A stretch of DNA of 42,007 nt from Candidatus Terrybacteria bacterium (GCA_016208535.1 JACQXW010000010.1:1-42007), one strand, 5' to 3'. Shown: positions 4,741 to 25,675, counted from the stretch's first letter. A program made the numbers and translations. Notes: generated from the letters alone by a model not told the origin.

Positions 4741-4749
4741 TTATCCACA
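4741..4749 (+). promoter_or_regulatory. TTATCCACA (perfect DnaA-box consensus 9-mer)
   Basis: Exact 9-mer in the intergenic region upstream of the 722-aa surface-protein gene. Confidence 0.5.
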
Positions 4750-4760
4750 CCCGCCCTTGC

Positions 4761-4768
4761 GGGGGGGG
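4761..4768. repeat. homopolymeric G8 tract
   Basis: gcGGGGGGGGct lies between the TTATCCACA motif and a TATGAA(T) -10-like box. Confidence 0.9.
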
Positions 4769-4798
4769 CTTAAATGATAGGATTTAAACAATATGAAT

Positions 4799-4860
4799 CC
4801 CGTTAGAAATAAGGTTGTAATAACGGGAAGTATTATTAGGTTAATAAAATTTCTAACGGG
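4799..4860. repeat. 12-bp inverted repeat CCCGTTAGAAAT / ATTTCTAACGGG around a 38-nt spacer
   Basis: The repeat ends exactly at the ATG of the 4861 ORF. It shares the CCCGTTAGAA core with the hairpin at 3689-3717. Confidence 0.8.
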
Positions 4861-7029
4861 ATGAAAAACATCAAAAAATTATTTATTATCAGTTTATTTT
4901 TAGGTATTTTGGTCGCAGCTGGAGGTTTTGGTTATCAGGCCCAGGCCGCTGGCTTAACTCAAATCCAGATTGACGCCATTCTTGGTCTACTTCGCTCTTT
5001 TGGCGCAGACGCAGCAACAGTTAGCAATGTTCAATCCGCTCTCACAGGCGCGCCAGTTGTTCCTCCAACACCTCCTCCACCTCCTTCAACTACTCCTTCA
5101 ACCGCAGCATGGTGCCATGATTTTTATGTTAATTTAAAGGTTGAAGATTCCGGGAGTGAAGTTGGCGCATTAAAAACTGCTTTAATAAAGGATGGTTTTC
5201 CAATAAATGAAAGTTTAAATTTTAATGAAGAGACTGTCTCAGCAGTCATTGGTTTTCAAGAAAAATACAAAGACGAAATTTTAATTCCCGTAGGCCTTCA
5301 ATATGGAACCGGTTATGTTGGCGCATCAACAAGAGCCAAATTGAATTCGCTTTATGGCTGCCTGATTCCTGTTCCTCCTCCACCGCCGTCAGAAATTACC
5401 ATAATCCCAACTCCAACACCGACACCAATAATAGCAACCACCACTCCCTCCATCACCGTGCTTTCGCCGAACGGAGGGGAGGTGTTTGTACAAGGGCAAA
5501 ATAATACAATTTCGTGGGAATCAAGCAATCTCCCGTCCAATACAACCTATGTTCATCTTGCACTAATATCGGAAACTGCCGGCGAAGTTGGCTTTATTAA
5601 TTATACGAATACAAATGACCCGATCTTAAATTGCGGCTCATACTTATTAAGTGCTAATGGTAATTATAGCTGGGATGGAAAAACCGCATGTAAGAATAGT
5701 CAAAAAGTTAATGTATCAGTTGGAAATTATAAAATCAATGCGAGATTATATTCATGGCCTAATACTAATAATCCAGGAATAGAAATTGCTTTAGATTCCA
5801 GCGACGCGGCGTTCAGTATTGCGGCGGCGACACAATCCTCAATAAAACCCATGATATTTAGAGACATTTTGAAAGTAGAGAGTGTAACTCCGTATGATGT
5901 TGCGAATTTAGGTTTTGGTGTCTATCAAGTGAGCGCTCAATATAACTTGGGATCATATCACCAAGGCAAGTGGTATGAAGGATTGAATCCGGGCATCTCG
6001 GGTCCGGTGTGGGTTGAATTTAGTTGGCCAAACCGGCCTGACACTGATGTTCTGTTGCAAGACGAAAATGGTCTTAGCCGAAAAATTTATCTTCCCTCTG
6101 CCGGAGCAAATACAACAGGTAATCCATGGTATTATTGGATAGCCGAGGACGGATCAAGTTATTATGCCCATACAAGTCATGGCCCTAGTTGGCCTAATCT
6201 TTCTAGTAGTGAAGCATTAAAACTGGAGCATCTTGCTCAAAAAGCAGCAACCACCACCACCCCCTCCATCACCGTGCTTTCGCCGAACGGCGGGGAGAGT
6301 TGGAGTGTCGGTTCAACACAGACGATTCGTTGGACATCTCAAAATTTGCCTTCCGGGTCAAATTATCAGTTTTCAATTGATCTTCGTAAAAACGATGTCA
6401 ACATTAGAACACTTTTTATTTCAACGGAGAATGATGGCACTCAACAATGGATAGTCCCGGATATTGTTTCAAGTGGAATCGAAACTGGTTTAAAAATCCG
6501 ACTTTCTCTTTATGTAGTAGGAACTGCTAAACCTCTTTATTACGACGACAGCGACGCGGCGTTCAGTATTGCGGCGGCAGGGCCAGCAACAGGGACTGTG
6601 ACTATCGCTTCACCAAATGGCGGAGAAACATATGTCCAGGGGTCAACTTACAATATCAACTGGACAAATTTTGGTTTTGGATCTGATGCCTGGGCGCAAA
6701 TCCAGCTCAGGAATTCAACTGATCCCTCTAAGATGGTTAGTCTTATCGTTAATTCAGTGCCAGCAACGGCAAATACTGGAAGTACATACAGCTGGACTGT
6801 GCCTAATACCATTCCGGCTGGCAAATATCTTATTTGGGTGACAATGGGAAGTGGATTAGATTCTACTGGAAATCGCGTTCTCGGCTCTGATTATTCCGAC
6901 GCGGCGTTCAGCATTGTGGCCACAACCACTTCTGGTTTAGGGGCGGTGCCGGCATCAACACAAACAGCAAGCGCCCTCGGGCCTTTATTAGAGGCGATAA
7001 ACAAACTAATTGAACTCTTGAAAAAATAG
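4861..7029 (+). CDS. secreted/cell-surface protein: signal peptide, peptidoglycan-binding-like domain, Pro/Thr linkers, three repeated beta-sandwich-like modules
   Basis: 722 aa. N-terminal signal MKNIKKLFIISLFLGILVAAGGFGYQAQA. A PG_binding_1-like stretch (GSEVGALKTALIKDGF...GFQEKY). Three modules each start ...SPNGGE..V/QGS...W and end SDAAFSI(A/V)A. Identical 29-mers occur at 5446/6262 and at 5800/6550. Confidence 0.8.
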   Translation: MKNIKKLFIISLFLGILVAAGGFGYQAQAAGLTQIQIDAILGLLRSFGADAATVSNVQSALTGAPVVPPTPPPPPSTTPSTAAWCHDFYVNLKVEDSGSEVGALKTALIKDGFPINESLNFNEETVSAVIGFQEKYKDEILIPVGLQYGTGYVGASTRAKLNSLYGCLIPVPPPPPSEITIIPTPTPTPIIATTTPSITVLSPNGGEVFVQGQNNTISWESSNLPSNTTYVHLALISETAGEVGFINYTNTNDPILNCGSYLLSANGNYSWDGKTACKNSQKVNVSVGNYKINARLYSWPNTNNPGIEIALDSSDAAFSIAAATQSSIKPMIFRDILKVESVTPYDVANLGFGVYQVSAQYNLGSYHQGKWYEGLNPGISGPVWVEFSWPNRPDTDVLLQDENGLSRKIYLPSAGANTTGNPWYYWIAEDGSSYYAHTSHGPSWPNLSSSEALKLEHLAQKAATTTTPSITVLSPNGGESWSVGSTQTIRWTSQNLPSGSNYQFSIDLRKNDVNIRTLFISTENDGTQQWIVPDIVSSGIETGLKIRLSLYVVGTAKPLYYDDSDAAFSIAAAGPATGTVTIASPNGGETYVQGSTYNINWTNFGFGSDAWAQIQLRNSTDPSKMVSLIVNSVPATANTGSTYSWTVPNTIPAGKYLIWVTMGSGLDSTGNRVLGSDYSDAAFSIVATTTSGLGAVPASTQTASALGPLLEAINKLIELLKK

Positions 7030-7040
7030 AAAATTCGCGC

Positions 7041-7069
7041 TTGACTTCTGATTTTTGCTAGTTTACCAT
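7041..7069 (+). promoter_or_regulatory. promoter TTGACT-N17-TACCAT, 7 nt before the ATG
   Basis: ttgacttctgatttttgctagttTACCATaaaaaacATG. Confidence 0.5.
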
Positions 7070-7076
7070 AAAAAAC

Positions 7077-7283
7077 ATGGAAGTTGTTACAATTCCTAAA
7101 AAATTAGAAAAAGAATTAAAAGATGTTTCTCATAATTTTGGCGTTTCTCAAGAGGATTTTTTAACAAATGCCGTTTTATACTATCTCAAGGCCTTGAAAG
7201 ATAAAATTGATTTAAAAAAGGAATTAGAAATGTGGGCTAATGCCAGTGAGAAAGATTTTCTTAAATTTGAAAAGAGTTTATGA
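7077..7283 (+). CDS. antitoxin of the MazEF/PemIK-type pair
   Basis: 68-aa ORF with an ATGA overlap onto the downstream PemK/MazF-like toxin. Confidence 0.6.
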   Translation: MEVVTIPKKLEKELKDVSHNFGVSQEDFLTNAVLYYLKALKDKIDLKKELEMWANASEKDFLKFEKSL

Positions 7284-7606
7284 AAAAGGGCGATGTTTGT
7301 ATCGTTAATGTGGCTACTGGCGTCGGCCATGAGCAATATGGCGAGAGGCCGGCAATTTTAATTTCAGATACAAAGATAGGTATTGTTATCGTTATACCTT
7401 TGACTTCCAATATGGAAGCCTTAAAATTTCCTTATACTCTAACTATTTTTTCTGATAAACAAAATAATCTTAGTCAAGATTCTGTGGCGCTAATTTTCCA
7501 GATTAGAGCCGTTGATAAATCAAGAATTACAAAAGTTATTGGAAAAATCAGCACAAATTTTCAAAAAAAGATTGACAAGATTCTTAAAGAGGTATTGGTT
7601 TTATAA
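7280..7606 (+). CDS. mazF: PemK/MazF-family mRNA-interferase toxin
   Basis: 108 aa. MKKGDVCIVNV...GHEQYGERPAILISD...VIVIPLTSN fits the PemK/MazF fold signature. Confidence 0.8.
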   Translation: MKKGDVCIVNVATGVGHEQYGERPAILISDTKIGIVIVIPLTSNMEALKFPYTLTIFSDKQNNLSQDSVALIFQIRAVDKSRITKVIGKISTNFQKKIDKILKEVLVL

Positions 7607-7676
7607 AACCGCTAGTATTCAACCGACATCGTAAGTCGGTTCTTCACGAAGTTTGGTGTTGTGCAAGGCAAAAAAC

Positions 7677-7699
7677 AACCCTGGCACACGGCCAGGGTT
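7677..7699. terminator. bidirectional intrinsic terminator
   Basis: aaaaaacAACCCTGGC-acacg-GCCAGGGTTttatt. The A-run and T-run flank the hairpin. Confidence 0.65.
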
Positions 7700-7708
7700 T
7701 TATTCGTC

Positions 7709-7792
7709 TCAATAAAGACAAATTTCTTTTCCTGTTTCAGGGTCTATGCCCTTTTTTTCTTTTCCGCAATTAGAACATATTTCTTCTCCCAT
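7709..7792 (-). CDS. 27-aa Cys-containing small ORF (MGEEICSNCGKEKKGIDPETGKEICLY)
   Basis: A perfect AAGGAGG lies 4 nt upstream of the ATG, and the terminator at 7677-7699 follows. It is below the ORF-track length cut-off. Confidence 0.3.
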   Translation of the reverse strand: MGEEICSNCGKEKKGIDPETGKEICLY

Positions 7793-7805
7793 AAACCCTC
7801 CTTTC

Positions 7806-7836
7806 TTGACAAAGTTTTTCTAATTCTTATTATAAT
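7806..7836 (+). promoter_or_regulatory. groESL promoter TTGACA ... TATAAT, 6 nt before the ATG
   Basis: TTGACAaagtttttctaattcttatTATAATatttatATG. No SD and no CIRCE palindrome is visible. Confidence 0.6.
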
Positions 7837-7842
7837 ATTTAT

Positions 7843-8160
7843 ATGACAAAAATAAAACCTCTGCATAACAATGTTTTGATTGAGCCGCTTTCCGAAGCGG
7901 AGCGCGGCAGTATGACAAAATCCGGAATTATTATTCCGGAAACAGTGGATAAGGAAAAACCCGATCAAGGCCGGATTATCGAAGTTGGTCCAGGTAAAAG
8001 AAACGAGGCCGGGAAAATTATTCCTTTGTCTGTGAAAAAAGGACAGAGGGTCGTTTTTTCAAAATACAGCCCTGATGAAATCAAGGTCGGAGACCCGTAC
8101 GGGCAAGCTAAAAAATATTATATAATAAGCGAAGATAATATATTGGCAATTATAGAATAA
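7843..8160 (+). CDS. groES: co-chaperonin GroES
   Basis: 105 aa. MTKIKPLHNNVLIEP...GIIIPETVDKEKPDQGRIIEVGPG. Confidence 0.95.
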   Translation: MTKIKPLHNNVLIEPLSEAERGSMTKSGIIIPETVDKEKPDQGRIIEVGPGKRNEAGKIIPLSVKKGQRVVFSKYSPDEIKVGDPYGQAKKYYIISEDNILAIIE

Positions 8161-8161
8161 T

Positions 8162-9802
<1,641 letters not shown>

Positions 9803-9810
9803 AAGAAAAA

Positions 9811-9829
9811 GAGCGCCGTTTAGGCGCTC
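9811..9829. terminator. hairpin GAGCGCC-gttta-GGCGCTC after groEL
   Basis: An A-run lies upstream, which is a T-run on the - strand. There is no T-run downstream on the + strand. Confidence 0.4.
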
Positions 9830-9990
9830 GTCGGCGAAATTTGGAGATTGCAAATATAAATCTCCTTTTTCTTTTTATCAATTGTACAACCACAGAAAGG
9901 ACATGTATTATGTTTTATATCAGAAGGACGGATATATCCCTCTTTTCCTATATTTGGACAATATATCTTAATAGAATGTTCGTTGTCCAT
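9820..9990 (-). CDS. 56-aa Cys-rich small ORF (MDNEHSIKIYCPNIGKEGYIRPSDIKHNTCPFCGCTIDKKKK...)
   Basis: A perfect AAGGAGG (9997-10003) lies 6 nt upstream of the ATG. The Cys spacing CP-x18-CPFCGC is zinc-ribbon-like. The stop lies inside the groEL-distal hairpin. Confidence 0.35.
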   Translation of the reverse strand: MDNEHSIKIYCPNIGKEGYIRPSDIKHNTCPFCGCTIDKKKKEIYICNLQISPTSA

Positions 9991-10040
9991 TTCACACCTC
10001 CTTTCTTCTTTTCTATTCTATATAAATTATATCAAAAGGC

Positions 10041-10079
10041 TTTACTGAAATTCAAATTTTTGCTATGATGTTATCCACA
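10041..10079 (+). promoter_or_regulatory. promoter TTTACT-N17-TATGAT followed immediately by TTATCCACA (10071-10079)
   Basis: tttactgaaattcaaatttttgcTATGATgTTATCCACAattATG. The box would overlap the transcription start. Confidence 0.45.
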
Positions 10080-10640
10080 ATTATGACTACAACATTTTGG
10101 ATTTTATTGAGTATTTTAGGGGTCGTTGTTTTGTGGTTTATTGCCATTTATAACGGCTTTATCCGGCTCATCACCCGGGCCAAAGAGGCTTGGGCGGATA
10201 TTGATGTCCAGTTAAAGAGGCGATATGACCTGATTCCCAATCTAATGGAAACAGTGAAGGGTTACGCGGCTCATGAAAAAGGCATTCTTGAAAGAGTGAC
10301 TCAGTTAAGGGTTCAGGCAATGGCAGCGCAGGGGGTTGAAAAACGAGGGGAGATAGAAAATATACTCACCGCCAGCCTGAAGACCCTTTTTGCTGTTTCA
10401 GAAAATTATCCGCAACTGAAGGCGAATGAAAATTTTTTGGAACTTCAGCGCGAACTTTCAGACACAGAAAACAAGATTCAGGCGGCGCGCCGGTTTTACA
10501 ACACCAATGTCCGCGACCTCAATATCAAAACAGACTCTTTCCCCTCTAATCTCATCGCCAAAATTTTCAATTTCTCTAAAATGGAATTTTTTGAACTAGA
10601 GGAAGAGGCTGCTAAGGAACCAGTTAAAGTAAATTTCTAA
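10065..10640 (+). CDS. lemA: LemA family membrane protein
   Basis: 191 aa with one N-terminal TM. ...AIYNGFIRL...AWADIDVQLKRRYDLIPNL...ENYPQLKANENF...RRFYN is typical LemA. The alternative in-frame start at 10083 is more consistent with the promoter. Confidence 0.85.
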   Translation: MMLSTIMTTTFWILLSILGVVVLWFIAIYNGFIRLITRAKEAWADIDVQLKRRYDLIPNLMETVKGYAAHEKGILERVTQLRVQAMAAQGVEKRGEIENILTASLKTLFAVSENYPQLKANENFLELQRELSDTENKIQAARRFYNTNVRDLNIKTDSFPSNLIAKIFNFSKMEFFELEEEAAKEPVKVNF

Positions 10641-10655
10641 TTTCTAATTTCTAAA

Positions 10656-11543
10656 ATGACACTTTATTCTCAGCAGGATAAAAATATCAGGAAGACATGG
10701 CTTTTAATGTGCTTGTTTTTCATCGGTGTCATTGCTGTTGGCTTTGTTTTTTCGCAAATTTACAGAAGCCCGGGGATTTTGTATTTCGCTGTTATTTTCA
10801 GTTTGCTGATGAATTTTTTCTCTTATTGGTATTCTGACAAAATTATTCTAAAGATGTCCGGCGCCAAACTTGCCGACCACGACAACCATCGCGAACTTTT
10901 TCATCTTGTGGAAAATCTTTGCATCACCGCCGGTTTGCCGATGCCGAAAATTTACATCATCAATGATCCGGCGCCCAATGCCTTTGCCACTGGCAGAAAC
11001 AAGGAGCATGCAGTGGTGGCTGTGACAACTGGTCTACTTGAGCGTCTTAATAAAGCGGAACTTGAGGGAGTTGTAGCCCACGAACTTTCTCATATCGGCA
11101 ACCGCGATATTCTCATCTCCACTATTGTGGTTGTGTTAGTCGGCTTTATCGCTCTGCTTTCCGATTTCTTTTTAAGGTTTAGTTTTTTTGGTGGAAGGCG
11201 TGATGATAGGAGTGACGGCCGGCTACAGGCGATTTTAATGATAGTCGGCATTGCCTTGGCGATTCTGGCGCCCATTGCCGCTATTCTGATTCAACTGGCT
11301 GTTTCGCGCAAAAGAGAATTTTTGGCAGACGCCTCTGCTAGCCTTTTGACAAGATATCCAGAGGGTCTGGCCCTGGCTTTGGAAAAGATTTCCCAATACA
11401 AACAGCCGATGAAAATGGCAAACAAGGCAACGGCGCATTTGTATATTTCCAACCCCTTTGGCGCCAAAAGAATAAGCAGGTTGTTTATGACCCATCCGCT
11501 GGTAGAAGAGAGGGTTAAGGCGCTGCGGGGTATGGAGATTTAA
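10656..11543 (+). CDS. htpX: M48-family zinc metalloprotease HtpX
   Basis: 295 aa with TM segments, the HELSHIGNRD zinc motif and the distal ...REFLAD... motif. Confidence 0.9.
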   Translation: MTLYSQQDKNIRKTWLLMCLFFIGVIAVGFVFSQIYRSPGILYFAVIFSLLMNFFSYWYSDKIILKMSGAKLADHDNHRELFHLVENLCITAGLPMPKIYIINDPAPNAFATGRNKEHAVVAVTTGLLERLNKAELEGVVAHELSHIGNRDILISTIVVVLVGFIALLSDFFLRFSFFGGRRDDRSDGRLQAILMIVGIALAILAPIAAILIQLAVSRKREFLADASASLLTRYPEGLALALEKISQYKQPMKMANKATAHLYISNPFGAKRISRLFMTHPLVEERVKALRGMEI

Positions 11544-11547
11544 TTTA

Positions 11548-12171
11548 ATGATTGAAAAATTAAAAAAAGAAATTAGCCGGCTGAAAAAAGAAATCGGCCA
11601 ACTCCACGGCATGATAGAAACCGATTCTCTCACCGGCCTTTATAATCGTCACGGGTTCATAAAAAGAGCGGAAGGGTTTTTAAAGTCCATTGAATGGGGA
11701 GAGAAGCATCATAAGGAGCGCCGCGACATTTTTTATATCAAAGATTTTACAATCGTTTTTATTGACCTTGATAATTTTAAATTCATAAACGACACATTCG
11801 GCCATAAGGCAGGCGATGTTGTGATAAAGGAAATAGCCGATGTTTTAAAAATAAACACAAAAGAGGTCGATGTTTTATGTCGATGGGGAGGCGATGAGTT
11901 TGTTTTGGGACTGGTGGGAGTGGGCGAGCGCACAGGCGCGGCCATAGCCGAGAGGCTGCGCAGAAAAATTGCCGGCCATAAGTTTGCCACAGGAAAAGGT
12001 ATTGCCAGAGCAACTGCCAGTTTTGGCGTTGCCAGCGCCTTGCAGTGCTACAAACAAACGAAATCAATCAATCTATACCGCTTGATTGAGGAGGCGGATG
12101 AGGCAATGTATGAGGTCAAAAAGAAACTTGGAAAAAACTTTGTGGCGTCGTATCATAAGGTAAAGAGATAA
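11548..12171 (+). CDS. GGDEF-domain diguanylate cyclase-like protein with N-terminal coiled coil
   Basis: 207 aa. DSLTGLYNRHGF...FIDLDNFKFINDTFGHKAGD...RWGGDEFVL. Confidence 0.8.
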   Translation: MIEKLKKEISRLKKEIGQLHGMIETDSLTGLYNRHGFIKRAEGFLKSIEWGEKHHKERRDIFYIKDFTIVFIDLDNFKFINDTFGHKAGDVVIKEIADVLKINTKEVDVLCRWGGDEFVLGLVGVGERTGAAIAERLRRKIAGHKFATGKGIARATASFGVASALQCYKQTKSINLYRLIEEADEAMYEVKKKLGKNFVASYHKVKR

Positions 12172-12175
12172 TAAT

Positions 12176-12397: not shown

Positions 12398-12405
12398 AAA
12401 TTTTT

Positions 12406-16792: not shown

Positions 16793-16841
16793 TTATCCAC
16801 AAAAAAATTTGCTTTGCAAAATTTTTTTCATGGGGTATGAT
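16793..16841 (+). promoter_or_regulatory. TTATCCACA (16793-16801) followed by the nrdD promoter TTTGCA-N17-TATGAT
   Basis: TTATCCACAaaaaaatttgcTTTGCAaaatttttttcatggggTATGATaaaagtatcttATG. Confidence 0.5.
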
Positions 16842-16852: not shown

Positions 16853-18991
16853 ATGGCAAAAATTTCTAAAAAAATCAAAGCCCCGAAAAAAATCACGAAG
16901 AGAGACGGCCGGGTTGTTGATTTTGACCAGAATAAAATCACCAAAGCCATTCATAAGGCTCTGACAGCCTCTGGCCAGGGCGATGGAAAAGAGTCAAAAA
17001 AGGTTTCTGACCGCGTAATCAGCCTTATAAATAGGCGTTTTAAGAAGGAGGAGGTTCCTAATGTTGAGGAGGTTCAGGATATTGTGGAAGAGGTCTTGAT
17101 TCTAGAGGGCTATGTGGAAACAGCCAAATCTTACATTCTTTACCGCGAACAGCGCCGCCGCATCCGAGAGCAAAAAACCGCGCTTGACGAGAGCCTGGAT
17201 ATGGTTGATAAATATCTTCGCAATGACGACTGGCAGGTGCGCGAAAACGCCAATATGTCTTTTTCTTTGCAGGGATTGCATCACTATATTATTTCCGCAG
17301 TGAGTAAAAAATACTGGCTGAACAAAATTTACACTCCGGAAATAAGAAAGGCGGTTGAAGAGGGCTCGTTCCATATTCATAATCTTGACTTTTTAGGGAC
17401 TTACTGCTGCGGTTGGGATTTGATGGATCTTTTGATGCGTGGTTTTGGTGGCGTGCTAGGTAAAGTAGAATCAAAGTCAGCCAAACATCTCAATGTCGCC
17501 TTGGGCCAGTTGGTTAATTTTTTCTATACCCTGCAGGGAGAATCAGCAGGCGCCCAGGCAGTGAGCAATTTTGACACCTTGCTGGCGCCATTTATAAGGT
17601 ATGACAATCTCACCTATCAGCAGGTGAAAAAGACCATCCAGACTTTTATTTTCAATTGCGCCATTCCCACTAGGGTTGGTTTTCAAACACCTTTTTTAAA
17701 TGTCACTTTGGATATAAAGCCGCCAGGGCATTTGGCAAGCCAGTCAGTTATCATTGGCGGCCAGCCTCAAAATGAAACCTACGGCGATTTTCAAGAAGAG
17801 ATGAATATTTTTAACAAAGCCTTTTTTGAGGTTATGGCCGAAGGCGACGCCAAGGGCCGGGTTTTCACATTTCCCATCCCCACCGTTAACATCACTAAAG
17901 ATTTTGATTGGGACAATCCTATTTTGCATGGCCTCTGGGAAATGACCGGGAAATACGGGGTACCTTATTTTGCCAATTTTATCAATTCTGAAATGAGCGC
18001 AGATGATGCTCGTTCCATGTGCTGCCGGTTGCGCCTGGACAACCGAGAACTTTATAAGCGCGGAGGAGGTCTTTTTGGTTCAGCCCCTTTGACCGGGTCA
18101 GTTGGCGTGATAACTATTAATCTGCCTCAAATCGGTTATCTTTCAAAAACCAAAAAAGATTTTTTTGACCGGCTTGGCAGGATGATGGATTTGGCAAAGG
18201 ACAGCTTGGAGATTAAGAGAAAGGTTCTTGATAATTTTATTGAAAGGGGACTTTATCCGTACTCCCGCTATTATCTGGAGTCGGTAAAGAGGATGAGGAA
18301 AAGTTATTGGGGAAATCATTTTTCCACCATTGGCCTGATTGGCATGAATGAATGTTTGCTTAATTTTATTGAGAAAGATATTACCGCCTCAGCCGGCCAG
18401 AAATTTAGCGTGGAGATTCTTGATTTTATGCGCGAGAGATTGGTTAAATACCAGGAAGAAACAGACAATCTTTATAATCTTGAGGCCACTCCGGCAGAGG
18501 GGACCAGCTACCGGCTGGCGAAAATAGACAAGGCGAGATTTCCGGACATTATCACAGCCGGCGAAAAAGAACCCTATTACACCAACTCCACCCATTTGCC
18601 GGTCGGATTCACAGACGATATTTTCGAGGCCCTGAAACTGCAGGATAATCTGCAGACCAAATATACCGGCGGCACCGTGCTTCACGGTTTTATCGGCGAA
18701 AAGATTTCTGACCACGAGATTATCAAGAGTATTCTTAAGAAAATTTTCAGCAAACATCATTTGCCTTATCTCACTTTTACGCCCACCTTCAGCATTTGTC
18801 CCAACCACGGTTATATCAGCGGAGAGCATTTCACCTGCCCGCACTGCCTCATTCCCCAACCTTGCGAGGTTTATTCGCGAGTGGTTGGGTATATCAGGCC
18901 CGTCCAACAGTGGCATGTGGGCAAACAAGAAGAGTATAATGAAAGAAAAGAATATGTTGTTGGCAGGACTGCAAAAATTCACCCTAATTGA
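16853..18991 (+). CDS. nrdD: anaerobic ribonucleoside-triphosphate reductase (class III) with N-terminal ATP-cone
   Basis: 712 aa. ATP-cone start (ITKRDGRVVDFDQNKI). C-terminal Zn site CPNHG...CPHC and the glycyl-radical motif ...YSRVVGYIRPV. Confidence 0.95.
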   Translation: MAKISKKIKAPKKITKRDGRVVDFDQNKITKAIHKALTASGQGDGKESKKVSDRVISLINRRFKKEEVPNVEEVQDIVEEVLILEGYVETAKSYILYREQRRRIREQKTALDESLDMVDKYLRNDDWQVRENANMSFSLQGLHHYIISAVSKKYWLNKIYTPEIRKAVEEGSFHIHNLDFLGTYCCGWDLMDLLMRGFGGVLGKVESKSAKHLNVALGQLVNFFYTLQGESAGAQAVSNFDTLLAPFIRYDNLTYQQVKKTIQTFIFNCAIPTRVGFQTPFLNVTLDIKPPGHLASQSVIIGGQPQNETYGDFQEEMNIFNKAFFEVMAEGDAKGRVFTFPIPTVNITKDFDWDNPILHGLWEMTGKYGVPYFANFINSEMSADDARSMCCRLRLDNRELYKRGGGLFGSAPLTGSVGVITINLPQIGYLSKTKKDFFDRLGRMMDLAKDSLEIKRKVLDNFIERGLYPYSRYYLESVKRMRKSYWGNHFSTIGLIGMNECLLNFIEKDITASAGQKFSVEILDFMRERLVKYQEETDNLYNLEATPAEGTSYRLAKIDKARFPDIITAGEKEPYYTNSTHLPVGFTDDIFEALKLQDNLQTKYTGGTVLHGFIGEKISDHEIIKSILKKIFSKHHLPYLTFTPTFSICPNHGYISGEHFTCPHCLIPQPCEVYSRVVGYIRPVQQWHVGKQEEYNERKEYVVGRTAKIHPN

Positions 18992-19661
18992 TTATCCGGG
19001 CAAAATCGCGGCCTCGGTTTTTACTGCTGGCTGCAATTTTTTGTGTTCTTTTTGTCACAACCCGGAATTAGTGGATCCTTTTTTGATGAAAAATCAGCCT
19101 GTATTGTCAGAAAGTGAAATTTTTGAATTTTTAGAAAGCCGAAGAGGGGATTTAGAGGGTGTATGCATTACCGGTGGCGAACCTACTTTGCATAAAGATT
19201 TGGCCGATTTTTTATCAAAGATAAAAAGTTTGGGTTTTAGCGTAAAATTGGATACAAACGGTAGCCATCCGGAGATGCTGGAAAAATTGATTAAAGAAAA
19301 ACTTGTTGATTATATCGCCATGGACATCAAGGCGCCGCTTGAAAGATATGAAGAAATAACAGGGGTGGCGAATTTAGAGAAAATTAAAAAGAGTGTTGAG
19401 TTGATAAAAAATTCCGATATTGATTACGAGTTTAGGACAACGGTTGTGCCAAGATTCCACAGCAAAGAAGATATCATTCAAATCGCCAAAGAAATTTCGT
19501 CTCCAAAGAAGCCGGCGAAAAAATATTTCCTTCAGCAGTTTTATTCCATAAAAACCTTGGACCCGGAATTAAAGAAAGAAAAAGGGTATTCAAAAGAAAT
19601 CCTCGCTGAATTCTGCGAGGCAGTGAAGCCGTACTTTGAGCACTGTGGCGTGCGTTATTGA
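18939..19661 (+). CDS. nrdG: anaerobic RNR activating protein (radical SAM)
   Basis: The CNFLCSFCHN (CxxxCxxC) cluster motif and GGEPTL. It overlaps the nrdD 3' end. The start is 18939 or 18954; the ORF-track start at 18885 is less likely. Confidence 0.9.
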   Translation: MKEKNMLLAGLQKFTLIDYPGKIAASVFTAGCNFLCSFCHNPELVDPFLMKNQPVLSESEIFEFLESRRGDLEGVCITGGEPTLHKDLADFLSKIKSLGFSVKLDTNGSHPEMLEKLIKEKLVDYIAMDIKAPLERYEEITGVANLEKIKKSVELIKNSDIDYEFRTTVVPRFHSKEDIIQIAKEISSPKKPAKKYFLQQFYSIKTLDPELKKEKGYSKEILAEFCEAVKPYFEHCGVRY

Positions 19662-19685
19662 CAAAAAATCTGTTTCGTGTATAAT
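19658..19685 (+). promoter_or_regulatory. near-consensus promoter TTGACA-N16-TATAAT
   Basis: TTGACAaaaaatctgtttcgtgTATAAT. It is followed by a ~60-nt leader with the hairpin TCCCGC-ctt-GCGGGA and an AAGGAG SD. Confidence 0.65.
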
Positions 19686-19749
19686 ACAATTAGTTCTTTT
19701 CAAATCCCGCCTTGCGGGACAAATACCAAATTTTAAGGAGAAAACTGCC

Positions 19750-20256
19750 ATGAAAAAGCAGAACACCTATGATCAGCAGACAGCAAAGTTTATCGCGACG
19801 GTATGCCAGAATATGCCCGAATTACCGGGCGACGTGATGCAGGGATGGATTCAAAACCCGAAAGGCCTCAAGAAATTTCTCAAAGGCCTCTGCCCACCGG
19901 AAACTTCATCAAGTTTCCCTGTCTGGAAAACCGTCACTCTCGGTATTCATAAATCAGTCGATGAATACCGCAAAGCTCTCGAAGCAAACGGATTCAAAAT
20001 AGGCAACTGGGGCGACGACATTCTCGGCAAATCGGCTTTCACCGTGAGCTCCGAAGAAACAGAAGTGGAATTAGTAAAAATGACCGTCGCAGAACTCGGA
20101 TTCAAAGACAGCGCGACCAGGAAAGATATCTACGAGAGAGCCATTGAGTTCGGGCTCAAGCTCTGCCCGAATGAAGTTGGTCCCGCCCTGCGCCTGCAAT
20201 ACACAGATCAGCCAATCCTTGGTCCTTTTTATTTTTTAAAATTTTTGCTAAACTAA
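19750..20256 (+). CDS. N-terminal part of a disrupted gene (candidate DGR target), unknown family
   Basis: The ATG lies 9 nt after AAGGAG. The region looks visibly more G+C-rich than its surroundings. The conserved-looking sequence ...CPNEVGPALRLQYTDQP is followed by low-complexity ILGPFYFLKFLLN and a stop. The ORF-track start at 19636 is rejected. Confidence 0.55.
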   Translation: MKKQNTYDQQTAKFIATVCQNMPELPGDVMQGWIQNPKGLKKFLKGLCPPETSSSFPVWKTVTLGIHKSVDEYRKALEANGFKIGNWGDDILGKSAFTVSSEETEVELVKMTVAELGFKDSATRKDIYERAIEFGLKLCPNEVGPALRLQYTDQPILGPFYFLKFLLN

Positions 20257-20442
20257 ATTTTAGATATTAGATTAATAAATGCCTGCGGTTACGGCTTCAG
20301 GCGATCGAATTCTGAAATCAGTAAAGCAGAGAACGGCATCGGGCACGCTTTATGCCGGAGTTGTTTATTGATTTCAAAAAAATAAAGAAACTTGGTATAA
20401 GGCGCTGGGGCATTAAAGATGCCGTATACGATTCAACTCTAA

Positions 20443-20658
20443 GAGTATTCGAAGAGTGGTGGCATAGATGGCGTCTTATACATTACTGACTCCAATGGCA
20501 ACCTCAATGTGTTTGAAGTGGAACGGAATAGCGATGGCTTATGGCTTAACGGCAACAACGGCAATCCTGACAACTTGTGGAACGCTGACAACCAGTGGGT
20601 TTTCTCTCGCGGCAACTCTCTTTATTTTTTCCCCGCTCTTCGCGGGGTTTTTAATTAA
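20443..20658 (+). other. open frame without start codon: C-terminal fragment of the disrupted gene; Asn-codon-rich VR/TR-like segment
   Basis: Same frame as the 19750 ATG. It reads ...GIDGVLYITDSNGNLNVFEVERNSDGLWLNGNNGNPDNLWNADNQWVFSRGNSLYFF..., with 8 AAC and 4 AAT codons in about 47 codons. Confidence 0.5.
20631..20652 (+). terminator. GC hairpin plus T-run at the end of the VR/TR-like segment
   Basis: CCCCGC-tcttc-GCGGGG followed by TTTTT. The palindrome TTAATTAA that follows supplies the stop codons of both convergent reading frames. Confidence 0.6.
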
Positions 20659-21023
20659 GCAGTTGTTTTTGCCATCCACCCAGTATCCTGCCAATTTCAT
20701 CCAAATATTCAGAAAAGACAATATATTTTTTATTATCCAAAGATTTTATTTCCCAGGAAATTTGCAGAAAAAACTTCAAAAGGTCCAGTTTTGAAATGGC
20801 TTTTTGTATGTACGGAGTTTTTAAGTTTTTATTCAATCGGCTTGCTATAAAAATCAACTCAGCGATTTCTATTATTAAACTATCAATCTTAATTCCCAGC
20901 GTGTAGCGCGAATCTTTCGGAAAGTGCGGAATAAATTCATGCCACAGCTTATATAACGCAATAATACAAATAATTATTGTTAAATTTTGTCGGGGGGGGG
21001 GGCGTACTGGTGAAATTTTTCAT
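20651..21023 (-). pseudogene. avd: Avd-like four-helix-bundle protein (DGR accessory), apparent frameshift in a C11/G11 tract
   Basis: The open frame reads ...LYKLWHEFIPHFPKDSRYTLGIKIDSLIIEIAELIFIASRLNK...KLDLLKFFLQISWEIKSLDNKKYIVFSEYLDEIGRILGGWQKQLLN. The only in-frame start is the TTG at 20857 (68 aa), which would remove the first helices. The ATG at 21023 comes into frame, giving 123 aa, if the homopolymer were 10 nt rather than 11. Confidence 0.55.
20992..21002. repeat. homopolymeric G11 tract
   Basis: gtcGGGGGGGGGGGcgtactgg, 39 nt upstream of the RT ATG and inside the avd 5' region. Confidence 0.9.
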
Positions 21024-21040
21024 ATACTAATAATACGCCC

Positions 21041-22027
21041 ATGATAAACAAATTCCAAACTAAATACGAAGAAATTATCTCTATCGAAAACCTCCTTTCG
21101 GCTTGGGAAGAATTTTTGAAAGGCAAAAGAAACAGAAAAGATGTTCAAGAATTTCAGTTTAATCTGATGGACAACATCCTTGCTCTCCATGGCAATCTCG
21201 CCAGCCGAACTTACAGCCACGGCGGATATAAAGCATTCAAAATCAACGACCCAAAGCCGAGAGATATCCACAAAGCAAGCGTGCGGGACAGATTGTTGCA
21301 TCACGCCATTTACAGGATTTTGTATCCGTATTTTGACAAAACATTCATAGCCGATTCTTTTTCCTGCAGATTAAAAAAGGGCACGCACAAAGCGATAAAC
21401 AGATTCAGAAAATTTGCCTACAAAACCGGCAAAAATGACACCAAAACCTGCTGGATTTTAAAATGCGATATCAAGAAGTTTTTTGCCAACATAGACCACA
21501 AAATTTTAATCAATGTCCTGCGTGAACATATTGTGGACGAAAACTTGATAAAACTTCTCAAAAACATCGTTGAAAGTTTTTCGTCAGCAAGAGATGGCAT
21601 CGGTTTACCATTAGGCAATCTCACTTCGCAACTTTTCGTAAATATTTACATGAACAAATTTGACCAATTTGTAAAACACAAATTGAAAGCGAAATATTAC
21701 ATCAGATATTGCGACGATTTTGTTGTTTTCTTGGAAAGTAAAAATTATGCGCAAAAATTGATTCCGCCCGTCAGGGAATTCCTAAACAAAGAGCTTAAAC
21801 TGGAACTGCATCCCGACAAAATTTCCGTCAAAACTCTGGCTTCCGGCGCCGACTTTCTCGGCTGGATTAATTTTACCGACCATAGAATTTTGAGAACCGC
21901 CACAAAAAGAAAAATATTCAGGAATATCAAGGAAAGGGGAGGTAAGGCGGAAACCGTCCAGTCGTATTTGGGGCTGATTAGGTGGGGGAATACAAGGAAA
22001 TTGCGTAATTTAATTGTAAAGTGTTGA
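21041..22027 (+). CDS. DGR-type reverse transcriptase
   Basis: 328 aa. ...NDPKPRDIHKASVRDRLLHHAIY...KCDIKKFFANIDH...GLPLGNLTSQLFVNIYMNKFDQFVKH...YIRYCDDFVVF...LELHPDKISV...ADFLGW. It carries the LGxxxSQ motif-4 signature and YxDD. Confidence 0.9.
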   Translation: MINKFQTKYEEIISIENLLSAWEEFLKGKRNRKDVQEFQFNLMDNILALHGNLASRTYSHGGYKAFKINDPKPRDIHKASVRDRLLHHAIYRILYPYFDKTFIADSFSCRLKKGTHKAINRFRKFAYKTGKNDTKTCWILKCDIKKFFANIDHKILINVLREHIVDENLIKLLKNIVESFSSARDGIGLPLGNLTSQLFVNIYMNKFDQFVKHKLKAKYYIRYCDDFVVFLESKNYAQKLIPPVREFLNKELKLELHPDKISVKTLASGADFLGWINFTDHRILRTATKRKIFRNIKERGGKAETVQSYLGLIRWGNTRKLRNLIVKC

Positions 22028-22059
22028 CATATTTTTGAGAGGATATATACTGTTAATCA

Positions 22060-22150
22060 TAAGGCCGTAGATGACAGGCGCTTGGGATAAAACAAGATAA
22101 GTCCTGTTGAGGTAAATTAACATTGCGGCTTTTGGGCCGTATTTTATTTT
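22060..22150 (+). promoter_or_regulatory. possible rplJ (L10) leader
   Basis: A ~120-nt untranslated spacer before rplJ with local pairings (GACAGG...CCTGTT). The assignment rests on position only. Confidence 0.25.
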
Positions 22151-22151
22151 T

Positions 22152-22676
22152 ATGTCCATAACAAAACAAAAAAAAGAGGAAATATTAGAGAATCTTAAAG
22201 AAAGCCTGAAAAAGGCGAAGATTGTGGTTTTTGTTAATTTTCATGGTCTAAGTGTTTCTCTTGCCAATGAACTAAGAAAGATTTTAAGGAGTATGGGCGT
22301 GACTTATATGGTTGCCAAGAAGACTTTGATTAAAAAAGCGCTGGAGACTTTTGGATTTTCCGGAGAGATGCCGAAATTGGAGGGAGAGATTGCCATCGCT
22401 GTTTCTGACAGCGATCCCCTTGCCTCAGCCAAGGCCTTGGAGCAGTTTGCGAAAAAAAATAAAGATAAAATCAAACTTGGTGGCGGAGTTTTTGAAAACA
22501 AATACATTGGAGCGGAAACCGTGATTATGCTTGCCAATATTCCAGCGCGCGAAATTTTACTTGGCCAATTAGTCAATATTATAAATTCGCCGATTCAGGG
22601 ATTGGTCGTAACCTTGAACGGATTAGTAAGCAAGTTTGTGAGAACTTTAGAAGAAATAGCAAAAAAGAAATCATAA
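22152..22676 (+). CDS. rplJ: 50S ribosomal protein L10
   Basis: 174 aa. The sequence (...VVFVNFHGLSVSLANELRKILR...YMVAKKTL) and its position upstream of rplL support the call. Confidence 0.9.
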   Translation: MSITKQKKEEILENLKESLKKAKIVVFVNFHGLSVSLANELRKILRSMGVTYMVAKKTLIKKALETFGFSGEMPKLEGEIAIAVSDSDPLASAKALEQFAKKNKDKIKLGGGVFENKYIGAETVIMLANIPAREILLGQLVNIINSPIQGLVVTLNGLVSKFVRTLEEIAKKKS

Positions 22677-22682
22677 AAATTT

Positions 22683-23063
22683 ATGTCAAAACATAAAGAT
22701 ATTATTGAAAAAATAGAGTCCATGAGCGTTCTTGAACTGCATGAATTAGTGAAGACGCTTGAGGAAAAATTCGGGGTGTCAGCGCAAGCTGTGGCAATGG
22801 CCGCACCTGCGGCAGGAGCCGTTTCAGCAGCCGGAGAAGAAAAAGAAGAAAAAACATCGTTTAATGTTGAACTCAAGAAGGCTGGGGAACAAAAAATCCA
22901 GGCCATTAAGGTTTTAAGGGATGCGCTTGGTCTGGGCCTTAAGGAGGCAAAGGATATGGTGGATGGCGCGCCAATTGTGGTGAAAGAAGGCATGGATAAA
23001 AAATCTGCCGAAGAACTGAAGACAAAACTTGAGGCAGCCGGTTGCGCAGTTGAACTGAAATAA
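22683..23063 (+). CDS. rplL: 50S ribosomal protein L7/L12
   Basis: 126 aa. ...[18 protein letters not shown]..., an Ala-rich hinge, and ...[27 protein letters not shown]...[11 protein letters not shown]. Confidence 0.95.
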
Positions 23064-23092
23064 GATATAATACTAACAAGTAGTTTAGTATT

Positions 23093-23716
23093 ATGACTGG
23101 TGTTTTGGATAAACTTTTTGGCTCGTCTGCTAGGGTTAAAATCATCCGTCTTTTTCTTTTGAACCCCGATACCTTATTCAATCTCAAGGAAATCTCTCGG
23201 CGCGCAAAGGTAATCCCAGCCTCTGCGCGGCGGGAGATTTTGGTTTTAAGAGATATTGGTTTTATCAAACAAACAAAGGAAAAAATAGACGAGATTATTA
23301 GATTAAAAAAAGGCAAAATTAAGAACAAAAAGAAAAAAATCCAAGGATTGAAACTCAATCAATTTTTTCCTTTTCTTCACCCCCTTAAAAATCTTGTTCT
23401 CAATAGCGTTCCCTTTAACAAAGAAAAACTGATGAAGAAAATAAATTCTCTTGGCAGGATGAAATTAATTGTTTTGGCGGGGATTTTTATCCAATCAGAC
23501 GAAAGCAGAACAGACCTTCTTTTGGTGGCTGATTCCATTAATAACAGCGGCCTGCAAAGAGTTTTAAAAGATATTGAGGCAAAAATAGGAAGAGAGATTG
23601 TTTACGCAATTTTCAACACAAAAGAATTTTTGTACCGTCTCGGCATGTATGACCGCTTCATCCGTGATGTTCTTGACTCCCCGCACGAAAAGGCGGTTAA
23701 TAAATTGAATATTTAA
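23093..23716 (+). CDS. hypothetical protein with N-terminal winged-helix-like DNA-binding region
   Basis: 207 aa. ...SSARVKIIRLFLLNPDTLFNLKEISRRAKVIPASARREILVLRDIGFI resembles an ArsR/MarR-like wHTH. Confidence 0.5.
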   Translation: MTGVLDKLFGSSARVKIIRLFLLNPDTLFNLKEISRRAKVIPASARREILVLRDIGFIKQTKEKIDEIIRLKKGKIKNKKKKIQGLKLNQFFPFLHPLKNLVLNSVPFNKEKLMKKINSLGRMKLIVLAGIFIQSDESRTDLLLVADSINNSGLQRVLKDIEAKIGREIVYAIFNTKEFLYRLGMYDRFIRDVLDSPHEKAVNKLNI

Positions 23717-23717
23717 C

Positions 23718-23789
23718 GGACACTTAGCTCAGTGGTAGAGCGCTTCGTTCACATCGAAGAGGTCACAGGTTCGAGCCCTGTAGTGTTCA
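23718..23789 (+). tRNA. tRNA-Val (anticodon CAC)
   Basis: Acceptor GGACACT/AGTGTTC (one G-U pair), D-arm GCTC-AGTGGTA-GAGC, anticodon stem CTTCG/CGAAG with loop TTCACAT, T-arm CACAG-GTTCGAG-CCTGT-like. Confidence 0.85.
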
Positions 23790-23887
23790 TTAAAAATCTA
23801 ACGGGGCAAGTTGCAAAGGTCGGAGGCCTGCCCCGTATAATCGAGCGAAGCGAGATTTATTCGGGGTTCGAGACCTCTCGCGCCCAA

Positions 23888-23930
23888 TTATCCACACCCA
23901 CTCCTTAAATTTCTCTCAATATGTTATAAT
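23888..23930 (+). promoter_or_regulatory. TTATCCACA (23888-23896) followed by a TATAAT -10 box (23925-23930)
   Basis: TTATCCACAcccactccttaaatttctctcaatatgtTATAAT. The -35 is weak. Confidence 0.4.
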
Positions 23931-23952
23931 CTCCATAAAGGTCGGTCGAACT

Positions 23953-23976
23953 AAAATTATTACGCGTAATAATTTT
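23953..23976. repeat. 24-bp perfect palindrome AAAATTATTACG|CGTAATAATTTT
   Basis: It lies between the TATAAT box and the TTG start at 24017. Confidence 0.9.
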
Positions 23977-24016
23977 TATTAATTTTATTTATTATCACAT
24001 AAACACTGAAGAACCT

Positions 24017-24496
24017 TTGGCAAAGGCAGGCTTCCGTCTTGACAGCGGCGCCTTTATCGGCGGTTTGGTGCGGTGGTTTTTAATCATCGTCTTTTTGATT
24101 GCCTCAATAGAGGTCATAGGTTTGAGCCAGGTCAACGCCTTTTTAAGAGATGTTGTTTTGGCTTATCTGCCGAATGTGATTGTGGCAGCTCTTATCTTGG
24201 TTGTGGCAGCCTTTGTGGCTAATGCTATACAGAAGATAATCGTTGGCTCAGCCAAGGCCGCAGGCGTTCCCTCATCTCAGCTTTTGGGAGGGATAGCCAA
24301 GTGGGCGATTTGGCTTTTCGCGATTCTGGCTGCCTTGTATCAGCTGGGGATTGCCGGAGTTTTTGCCCAAACGCTGTTTACGGGATTTGTGGCAATGCTG
24401 GCCATTGCCGGCGGTTTGGCCTTTGGTTTGGGAGCAAAGGAGGCGGCAGGAAGATATATTGAAAAATTAAGACAAGATATAAGTAATCGAGGATAA
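24017..24496 (+). CDS. multi-pass membrane protein (conserved TM-helix-repeat / MscS-N-terminal-like)
   Basis: 159 aa with a TTG start and four hydrophobic helices (e.g. GGLVRWFLIIVFLIASIEVIG). The N-terminus may be truncated relative to the family. Confidence 0.5.
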   Translation: MAKAGFRLDSGAFIGGLVRWFLIIVFLIASIEVIGLSQVNAFLRDVVLAYLPNVIVAALILVVAAFVANAIQKIIVGSAKAAGVPSSQLLGGIAKWAIWLFAILAALYQLGIAGVFAQTLFTGFVAMLAIAGGLAFGLGAKEAAGRYIEKLRQDISNRG

Positions 24497-24508
24497 AACA
24501 GAATAGAC

Positions 24509-24580
24509 TTATCCACAGCAACCGAGCACATAGATTATGTGCTCGGTTGACTTGTTTTTAGGAGATATTTATTTTATACT
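24509..24580 (+). promoter_or_regulatory. promoter module copy 1: TTATCCACA - palindrome CCGAGCACA-tagatta-TGTGCTCGG - TTGACT ... TATACT
   Basis: Positions 24509-24560 match 25609-25660 except for the 7-nt palindrome centre. A TATTTT box lies 17 nt after the TTGACT (24547-24552). Alternatively, TTGTTT-N17-TATACT sits 7 nt before the hicB ATG. Confidence 0.6.
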
Positions 24581-24587
24581 GAAATCA

Positions 24588-24842
24588 ATGAAAAAAAGAA
24601 CAGATCAATATTATATAATTTACGAACGAGACGAGAAAAAGGGATATATTGCTTCTGCGCCGGCGATTCCCGGTTGTGTTATATATGGAAAAACCTTAAA
24701 AGAGGCGCATAAAAATATTTATAGTGCCATAAAAGAATGTTTAGAAGTAATCCAAGAATTTAAAGGAAATTTACCAAAAGAAACCATAAAGCCTGAAGTT
24801 ATAAGGAAATTTTCTTTTATAAAAATTCCTGAATATGCCTAA
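24588..24842 (+). CDS. hicB: HicB-family antitoxin
   Basis: Begins at MKKRTDQYYIIYERDEKKGYIASAPAIPGCVIYGKTLKEAHKNIYSAIKECLE (UPF0150/HicB pattern). The ORF-track start at 24537 lies in the promoter palindrome. Confidence 0.75.
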   Translation: MKKRTDQYYIIYERDEKKGYIASAPAIPGCVIYGKTLKEAHKNIYSAIKECLEVIQEFKGNLPKETIKPEVIRKFSFIKIPEYA

Positions 24843-25056
24843 AATTAAGCCGATTGGATACGATGAATTTACAAGAAAATTGATGCGCGCCGGATATGTT
24901 CCAGTAAGAAAAAGCAAACACACCATATATTTTCATCCGCAGAAACAAATAACAATACCATTGCCACATAAACACCAAAAGGATATGTCCAAAGGATTTA
25001 TTCATAAACTCATAAAAGAAATGAAATTATCAACAGAAGAATTTAATCAATTATGA
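24835..25056 (+). CDS. hicA: HicA-family mRNA-interferase toxin
   Basis: 73 aa. MPKIKPIGYDEFTRKLMRAGYVPVRKSKHTIYFHP...ITIPLPHKHQKDMSKGFIHKLIKEM. It overlaps hicB by 8 nt. Confidence 0.8.
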   Translation: MPKIKPIGYDEFTRKLMRAGYVPVRKSKHTIYFHPQKQITIPLPHKHQKDMSKGFIHKLIKEMKLSTEEFNQL

Positions 25057-25574
25057 ATAACCAAAAAGGCATCGCGCCGATTGCAATAATATTGATAATC
25101 ATTGGAGCTTTGGCTCTTGGTGGCGGAGCGTGATATGTGAAGGAGCAGAAAAAGATAAAAGAAATCAAAAAACAAACGGAAGAATTAAATCAAAATCAGC
25201 AAACAAATCAGCAGCTGGGCGTACAAAGTAGTTATAATTTATTTGAAATAATTTCACCAAAAAATCAGGATGTATGGGAAAAAGGAAAGGAATATGAAAT
25301 TAATTGGAACCAAAACAAAGAAGTTGGATTAGTTGCAGTGCGGCTAGTTTCTCAGTCATCAACATCAACAAAAATTCTAATTGCTTCAAATGAAAAAGGA
25401 AAAGGTGATTTTATTAATTTTTCAAAGCCTCCAATAATTTATAAACCTTCCGTTTTAATCAAAAACGGTCTTTACAATGTTTTAATTTGCGATGTTTCTC
25501 CTTGGAATCGTGGTGTAAGTCAAGATAAAATTTGTAGTAAGAGTGGAATAGTAAATATAGTTGACAATCAGTAA
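25053..25574 (+). pseudogene. small secreted/anchored protein interrupted by an in-frame TGA
   Basis: The ATG at 25053 encodes the signal anchor MNNQKGIAPIAIILIIIGALALGGGA. A TGA at 25131-25133 follows, and the same frame then continues YVKEQKK... to 25574. The body resembles one module of the 722-aa surface protein (ISPKNQDVWEKGKEYEINW). Confidence 0.5.
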
Positions 25575-25608
25575 TCTTTAAATTCATTTAATAATTTTCT
25601 CGTTCTAG

Positions 25609-25675
25609 TTATCCACAGCAACCGAGCACATAATCTATGTGCTCGGTTGACTTGTTTTTAAGTCAAGTATATAAT
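25609..25675 (+). promoter_or_regulatory. promoter module copy 2 (23S-5S rRNA leader): TTATCCACA - palindrome CCGAGCACA-taatcta-TGTGCTCGG - TTGACT-N17-TATAAT
   Basis: Consensus TTGACT (25647-25652) and TATAAT (25670-25675). The leader contains a weak boxA-like GCTCTGTTTTAAC at about 25731. Confidence 0.7.

Follow-up and report, generated by a model that had tools for sequence, protein, structure and literature searches.

That the replication initiator DnaA has a second role as transcription factor is textbook knowledge. In Escherichia coli, it either activates or represses nrdAB through boxes at the promoter and autoregulates dnaA, and high-affinity boxes just upstream of the promoter have been reported to stabilize RNA polymerase at nrdAB (PMC8203912); chromatin immunoprecipitation sequencing (ChIP-seq) also found it bound upstream of nrdD (PMC11317965). 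Here we consider a 42,007-nt stretch of DNA from Candidatus Terrybacteria bacterium (GCA_016208535.1, JACQXW010000010.1:1-42007; hereinafter, the window), in which the exact 9-mer TTATCCACA, agreeing with the DnaA consensus (an R1/R4-type high-affinity box) at 9/9 positions, recurs upstream of genes with quite different functions. To our knowledge, the Patescibacteria (candidate phyla radiation [CPR]), with their tiny genomes and few recognizable regulators, have almost no experimentally characterized transcriptional control. Judging from the sequences, we consider it likely that these 9-mers are single high-affinity DnaA boxes forming an upstream promoter element and that DnaA is a promoter-proximal, probably activating factor with a large regulon.

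The preliminary description of this DNA had reported six exact copies of the 9-mer on the plus strand, all of them at promoters, and had expected such a word less than once in 42 kb. All six copies are present at the positions it gave (Table 1), and the expectation was sound: the window has 7 exact copies in total against 0.30 expected, a number that was reached by 0/100 dinucleotide shuffles, and 25 sites against 9.6 expected if one mismatch is allowed. The seventh is the single minus-strand copy, which indeed falls in glyA but eight bases away from the interval originally assigned to it (31714-31722). All genes from position 4216 on are on the plus strand, and the boxes face the genes that they precede, which accounts for the strand bias of the copies in the window. 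The window constitutes one contig (C24) of a genome (here G000) of 518,588 bp in 28 contigs that is 97% complete and in which a simple, crude codon-bias method called 504 genes (86% coding). In this genome, TTATCCACA occurs 40 times in 518 kb (77 per Mb), as against 32 copies in the 4.6 Mb of E. coli (PMC11317965). Noncoding or start-proximal DNA (76.8 kb) accounts for 29 of these copies, versus 0.8 for composition-matched control words, an excess of approximately 35-fold that supports the earlier suggestion of a regulon motif for DnaA or another factor. Most one-mismatch variants remain at background in the noncoding DNA, with TTATCCAAA, TTATCCATA, and TTATCAACA as exceptions, and the flanks of the 40 copies have in common an A at -2 (28/40), frequently a G at -1, and nothing else. 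Roughly a tenth of an estimated 256 or so transcription units carry a box; beyond the genes of the window, the targets include dnaN, mraZ, uvrD/pcrA, secA, and relA/spoT, as well as a type IV pilin, a type IV secretion system (T4SS)-type pilin, a ComF-like gene, and more large secreted proteins.

The 9-mer is likewise enriched in 41/41 relatives from the family and class, typically with 15 to 48 copies against 0 to 6 of the reversed word (the statistics for relatives come from searching for patterns and from individual fetched loci rather than from full gene calls). Among the 553 boxes of 18 family genomes, 143 have a TATAAT within 60 nt downstream. In these, the distance separating the box end from the TATAAT shows a sharp main peak at 28 to 32 nt (61/143, with a mode of 30, compared to about 12 expected under a uniform spread) and a second peak at 38 to 43 nt (30/143), which is one helical turn further out. 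With TATAAT taken as -12 to -7, the box spans approximately -51 to -43. Relative to the promoter, 168 matches in the family genomes are forward and 50 are reverse (approximately 3.4:1); i.e., the forward orientation is a preference and not a rule. In a sample of 201 genomes from the phylum, 43 contain a strict version of the pattern, box-N27-33-TATAAT; the hits number about 66, compared to about 5 for the control, and in many of them a clear TTGACA is correctly placed. The 9-mer is thus a positioned upstream element. The 16S promoter of the window (TTGACA-17-TATAAT, approximately 36564-36591) is without a box, and the 9-mer is therefore not part of every promoter. The preliminary description had invoked a variable distance to the -35 against a core promoter element, an argument that is only loosely valid: the distances in the window range from 28 to 52 nt, but across the family the distance does not vary freely and has the mode of 28 to 32 nt and the second mode one turn out.

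Conservation of the boxes at orthologous genes, which had been put forward as a check, is seen for four of the five independent sites of the window, the exception being the copy at lemA, which we take up below. The boxes at 24509 and 25609 belong to a common 52-nt duplication that begins exactly at the box and continues through a 29-nt palindrome into TTGACTTGTTTTTA, the segment at 24509 being a copy of the upstream half of the 23S promoter; they thus represent one event and are not independent. The small membrane-protein gene starting at 24017 has an exact box upstream in 13/15 orthologues, and in the 10 orthologues that match the strict pattern the gap to the -10 is 28 to 31 nt. In the family of the surface protein encoded at 4861, an exact box in the direction of the gene is found upstream at 16 of approximately 24 loci, including a paralogue on contig C1, and these boxes are mostly 29 to 32 nt from the -10. 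For nrdD, the box is exact in 6/8 cases (including G004, G016, G010, G001, and G005) and has a single mismatch in one more (TTATCCACT in G006). The region upstream of nrdD in G013 has no box and instead a B12-riboswitch-like leader (L008:3600-3800, reverse strand; GGTGAAATTCCGG...GCCCCAGTGGG, resembling the cobalamin riboswitch), which suggests that one control mechanism has been exchanged for another. The 23S promoter has a box in 5/8 family genomes, and the layout with box, GC hairpin, and TTGACT is also found in G007, G004, and G006; in G002, TTGTCCACA occupies that place and an exact box lies approximately 60 nt further upstream, and the 23S promoters of G010, G012, and G001 are without a box. 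In every family member some GC hairpin abuts the TTGACT of this promoter. The dnaA gene itself has an exact box 65 to 125 nt upstream of its start in 8/16 family genomes; the G000 gene has CTATCCACA as its upstream box, and the spacer between dnaA and dnaN contains an exact one. The spacers around the conserved boxes are otherwise unalignable.

Table 1. Copies of the 9-mer in the window and the features next to them
Feature	Position	Strand	Context
DnaA-box 9-mer	4741..4749	+	Upstream of secreted surface-protein gene 4861-7029, with peptidoglycan (PG)-binding and immunoglobulin (Ig)-like domains (Pfam hits)
GC hairpin, 19 nt, ending in a G8 run	4750..4768	+	Between the 4741 box and the -35-like TTAAAT (4770-4775); followed by TATGAAT (4792-4798)
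DnaA-box 9-mer	10071..10079	+	One base after TATGAT (10064-10069); at the start of lemA (10065)
DnaA-box 9-mer	16793..16801	+	Upstream of nrdD promoter: -35 TTTGCA (16813-16818), -10 TATGAT (16836-16841)
DnaA-box 9-mer	23888..23896	+	28 nt upstream of extended -10 TGT TATAAT (23922-23930); canonical arrangement
DnaA-box 9-mer	24509..24517	+	Ahead of HicB-like gene (24537); palindrome 24520-24548, TTGACT 24547-24552
DnaA-box 9-mer	25609..25617	+	Upstream of 23S rRNA promoter: -35 TTGACT (25647-25652), -10 TATAAT (25670-25675); 23S start at 25921
Reverse copy of the 9-mer	31706..31714	-	In glyA (serine hydroxymethyltransferase [SHMT], 31524-32690); coding, antisense to the gene

The preliminary description had further set five of the boxes upstream of -35/-10 boxes, one of these ahead of nrdD, and the sixth just after a TATGAT. 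Each of these placements agrees with what we find: the five boxes all lie upstream of -35/-10-like hexamers (predicted promoters), nrdD occupies 16853-18991 (NRDD and ATP-cone domains), and the TATGAT is separated from the 10071 box by one base. The gap from the end of the box to the -10 measures 28 nt at 23888, 34 nt at 16793, 42 nt at 4741, and 52 nt at both 24509 and 25609. The 23888 box serves the gene for the small membrane protein, which ends at 24496. At 4741, where the promoter assignment (TTAAAT/TATGAAT) is weak, the intervening hairpin widens the gap to 42 nt, which falls in the second spacing peak of the family. The minus-strand copy in glyA is probably not part of the promoter system.

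The 29-nt palindrome of the duplicated segment (AACCGAGCACATA...TATGTGCTCGGTT) stands between the DnaA box and the -35 in both of its copies; the second of these (25620-25648) is a terminator-like hairpin, and, together with the T-rich TTGACTTGTTTTT that comes next, the palindrome looks like a terminator overlapping the 23S promoter. The G8 run that separates box and -35 in the promoter of the surface-protein gene (4761-4768) has a parallel in a G9 run in a promoter of another genome (G003:C54), and GGGG is often seen directly before the TATAAT or TATGAT of box-bearing promoters, including that of nrdD. Changes in the length of such runs would shift the phase between box and promoter, and a phase-variation switch is thus possible. 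The rRNA genes of the window are unlinked, with the 23S (25921-29363) and 5S (29430-29534) genes approximately 7 kb upstream of the 16S gene (36697-38101). The 23S gene is 3,443 nt long compared to a model of 2,925 positions, which implies insertions, and the 16S match extends over just 1,405 nt, with a hit to a group II intron domain (38374-38488) after it. A reverse transcriptase gene (RVT_1) is found at 21041-22027.

Several lines of evidence point to DnaA as the protein acting on the 9-mer. G000 has one full-length dnaA gene (C19:15613-16977), followed by dnaN, and its product aligns over its full length with the DnaA of Bacillus subtilis and retains the domain IV motif PRQ...P...RDHTTVIHA, which we take to hold the residues that contact the bases in 1J1V, the structure of E. 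coli domain IV with DNA. In G000, the favored flank, with A at -2 and in many copies G at -1, is similar to the box context agTTATCCACA of E. coli (PMC11317965). On these grounds, we infer that DnaA reads the 9-mer. The RpoA protein has a normal alpha-subunit C-terminal domain (alpha-CTD), making a class I-type contact with RNA polymerase possible. We propose that one DnaA molecule, via its domain IV, would sit just upstream of the -35 of sigma-70-type promoters, on a box at approximately -51 to -43 or one helical turn out that usually faces the gene, and would modulate RNA polymerase from there. Such a geometry would fit a class I or MarA/SoxS-type activator that touches the alpha-CTD or sigma region 4. 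Position and phasing make activation the likelier direction of the effect; alternatively, or in addition, DnaA may repress through ATP-dependent spreading. A weak -35 could point to activation; the box promoters, taken by themselves, show a modest TTG signal (mean, 3.35/6 matches), which is compatible with activation as well as with repression. The regulon would comprise approximately 10% of the transcription units, joining the replication-linked genes dnaA, dnaN, nrdD, uvrD/pcrA, and mraZ with 23S rRNA, secA, relA/spoT, pilins, and large surface proteins.

A number of observations weigh against this proposal. In vivo, E. coli DnaA is found almost only on pairs of boxes 2 to 3 bp apart (PMC11317965), and the boxes here are single: a second, degenerate box (up to 3 mismatches) is not enriched at spacings of 0 to 6 beside the 40 copies, and the G000 boxes do not form double boxes of the E. 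coli type (2 to 3 bp apart). Coding DNA also has more copies in G000 than control words do (11 versus 3.8). The reverse boxes, about a quarter of those linked to promoters, cluster too, at 23 to 31 nt, a behavior not usual in a monomeric activator with strict orientation. Among the sites of the window, only the 23888 box lies within the main spacing peak, with the 16793 box just outside it at 34 nt, and at three sites (4741, 24509, and 25609) a hairpin stands between the box and the -35; it is the insertion of these GC hairpins that gives rise to the long gaps of 42, 52, and 52 nt. Finally, the 10071 box is atypically positioned, 3 nt before lemA or within its first codons, and an exact box is found at the lemA orthologues of 0/17 relatives. 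This misplaced copy is probably a chance or lineage-specific one that lies outside the system.

Other explanations of the 9-mer have to be set against DnaA-dependent promoter control. The copies could be DnaA titration sites, i.e., perfect boxes that soak up free DnaA to time initiation, that are intergenic because they are tolerated there, and that affect transcription only incidentally. The density of perfect boxes, approximately 11 times that of E. coli (PMC11317965), is in keeping with this, as is the excess of the exact consensus far above its one-mismatch variants, which suits high-affinity reservoirs; moreover, chromosomal titration of DnaA is experimentally supported in E. coli, and promoter boxes could play both roles (PMC12371093). 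Titration, however, would require neither a fixed distance to the -10 nor helical phasing nor a bias in orientation, all three of which are observed, and it does not predict that a box is retained at the same orthologues across genera. We regard it as improbable as the explanation of these sites, although titration and regulation may coexist. Only slightly less improbable is a different reader of the 9-mer, namely, MraZ, another small helix-turn-helix (HTH) factor, or the alpha-CTD of RNA polymerase acting on an unusual UP-like element. The boxes do prefer the positions (-51 to -43 and one turn upstream) at which the alpha-CTD is located at promoters, which is established knowledge from UP elements, but UP elements are A/T tracts and the core of this word is C rich; further, only approximately 10% of the transcription units carry a box, and the strong 16S promoter does without it. 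MraZ comes into question on account of the largest box cluster in G000, and the only one with at least two exact boxes, which is found at the mraZ promoter (C4:1614-1707). Here, one forward box lies upstream, inside the palindrome CTGTGGAAAGTTATCCACAG, and the -10 is followed by four direct repeats, GTGGGTAA and then three TGTGGATAA-like units, at spacings of 10, 12, and 9 nt (C4:1665-1707), with layout and spacing kept in G006 (C3:78260-78390, L042). This array resembles the operators of MraZ, in which direct GTGGN repeats are spaced by roughly 10 bp; it looks like an MraZ operator mimicking DnaA boxes, a DnaA repression array, or a site of dual control. We rejected MraZ as the general binder: it requires repeat arrays, the boxes elsewhere are single, and at least three direct GTGGN repeats at approximately 10-bp spacing are found at mraZ only and at none of the window sites, while two other candidate “GTGGG” sites precede genes for secreted proteins and not mraZ. 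Although single-box occupancy is atypical of E. coli DnaA (PMC11317965), which would favor another binder, the match to the DnaA consensus over the entire word, a flank like that of the E. coli context, and sites at dnaA, dnaN, and nrdD, which are classic DnaA targets, all speak for DnaA.

That the window sites mark a replication origin or an origin-like cluster of boxes, with the skew and strand switch at 2 to 4 kb corresponding to oriC, appears very improbable. GC skew and gene orientation do both flip near 2 to 4 kb, with the 4741 box close by, but similar local flips occur on several other contigs, and the dispersed, promoter-linked pattern of boxes is found on most contigs. In addition, dnaA-dnaN is on another contig (C19), which has a skew flip of its own and on which the skew remains positive even where genes are on the minus strand. 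With distances of 620 to 7,000 nt between them, the window boxes form no cluster, and a reading as oriC or as a DnaA-box cluster comparable to datA, DARS, or the DnaA-box clusters (DBCs) of B. subtilis was rejected, in accord with the preliminary description, which had judged the motif not to be an origin. Least credible of all, to our minds, is the notion that the copies belong to a dispersed repeat or mobile element or represent a chance or codon-driven word. It might be prompted by the 52 nt that the 24509 and 25609 sites have in common and by the richness of G000 in other small repeats, e.g., TCTAACGGG hairpins and heptamer arrays. Save for this one duplicate, however, the flanks of the 40 copies are unrelated beyond the A at -2, excluding a dispersed repeat or a miniature inverted-repeat transposable element (MITE); the shuffles never match the window count, and the bare 9-mer is enriched in every relative examined.

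The most overrepresented noncoding 9-mer in G000 is TCTAACGGG (reverse complement, CCCGTTAGA), with 36 copies between genes and 17 in coding DNA (0.3 expected); these are often paired in inverted orientation, forming hairpins. In the window, the word flanks the 5' leader of the surface-protein gene on both sides (positions 4797-4863), stopping right at the ATG, and some copies are in frame within genes, e.g., in rnpA upstream of dnaA (C19:15300-15400). At the dnaA promoter, in the dnaA-dnaN spacer, and at a pilin promoter, the stretch from the box to the -10 is occupied by heptamer arrays of the form (TAATTAG)n or its complement (C19:15560-15612, C19:17010-17045, and C15:105-130). The first codons of the ComF-like gene are ATGAAAAAACTTATCCACA in at least 6 genera (C26:7206-7224 in G000, with orthologues in G014, G010, G006, G007, and G002); the start of this gene overlaps a perfect box, and a divergent TATAAT on the opposite strand is 31 nt away from that box.

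Extending the proposal of DnaA as a promoter-proximal factor beyond this genome, we tentatively raise the possibility, to which we give less than even weight, that DnaA has become a global regulator coupled to the state of replication in this patescibacterial class and, more sparsely, in the phylum as a whole, with a single DnaA on one perfect box at approximately -47 (or approximately -58) recruiting RNA polymerase at about a tenth of the transcription units. If so, 23S rRNA synthesis, the supply of deoxynucleoside triphosphates (dNTPs), division, secretion, and the host-attachment pili and giant surface proteins would be tied to the abundance or ATP state of the initiator, through a single-box, phase-dependent mode of DnaA action that would be new relative to model bacteria. 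A role of DnaA as a broad promoter factor would explain how cells with few parts coordinate growth, replication, and the cell surface, and it would extend the repertoire of DnaA to single-box binding with fixed promoter geometry and a large regulon. The arrangement of the box also offers a practical marker of promoters and regulons for annotating these genomes. In the literature, we found no description of this DnaA-box promoter arrangement for CPR/Patescibacteria or minimal genomes; relative to the literature found, what is new is the lineage and the scale, together with an architecture of single boxes and a position in the promoter that is fixed and phased, and DnaA as a regulator was already known.

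In their geometry, the boxes may be compared with the sites of MarA/SoxS/Rob and of class I CRP, which are asymmetric, orientation-biased sites just upstream of the -35 or one turn further out, an arrangement that would imply a face-of-helix contact with RNA polymerase. Those activators belong to the AraC/XylS or CRP families, which are unrelated to the AAA+ initiator DnaA, and the orientation here is a preference of approximately 3.4:1. The DnaA regulon of B. subtilis likewise involves intergenic DnaA sites outside oriC and regulation of dnaA-dnaN, along with replication-stress genes, but its stable sites are multibox clusters at eight regions, whereas in the present case perfect boxes stand alone, at a fixed position in the promoter (PMC2533591, PMC4447404). 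The DnaA-controlled promoters of E. coli (dnaA, nrdAB, nrdDG, polA, purH, mioC, and rpoH) have the same 9-mer consensus (PMC8203912, PMC11317965), and in both organisms sites are found upstream of dnaA and of ribonucleotide reductase genes, nrdD included. The E. coli regulon is compact, with 16 bound regions and double boxes 2 to 3 bp apart, in contrast to the approximately 29 noncoding single boxes of G000, a genome one-ninth the size. Unlike those of E. coli, the boxes here have a preferred distance to the -10 and helical phasing, and their targets reach rRNA, secretion genes, pilins, and surface proteins.

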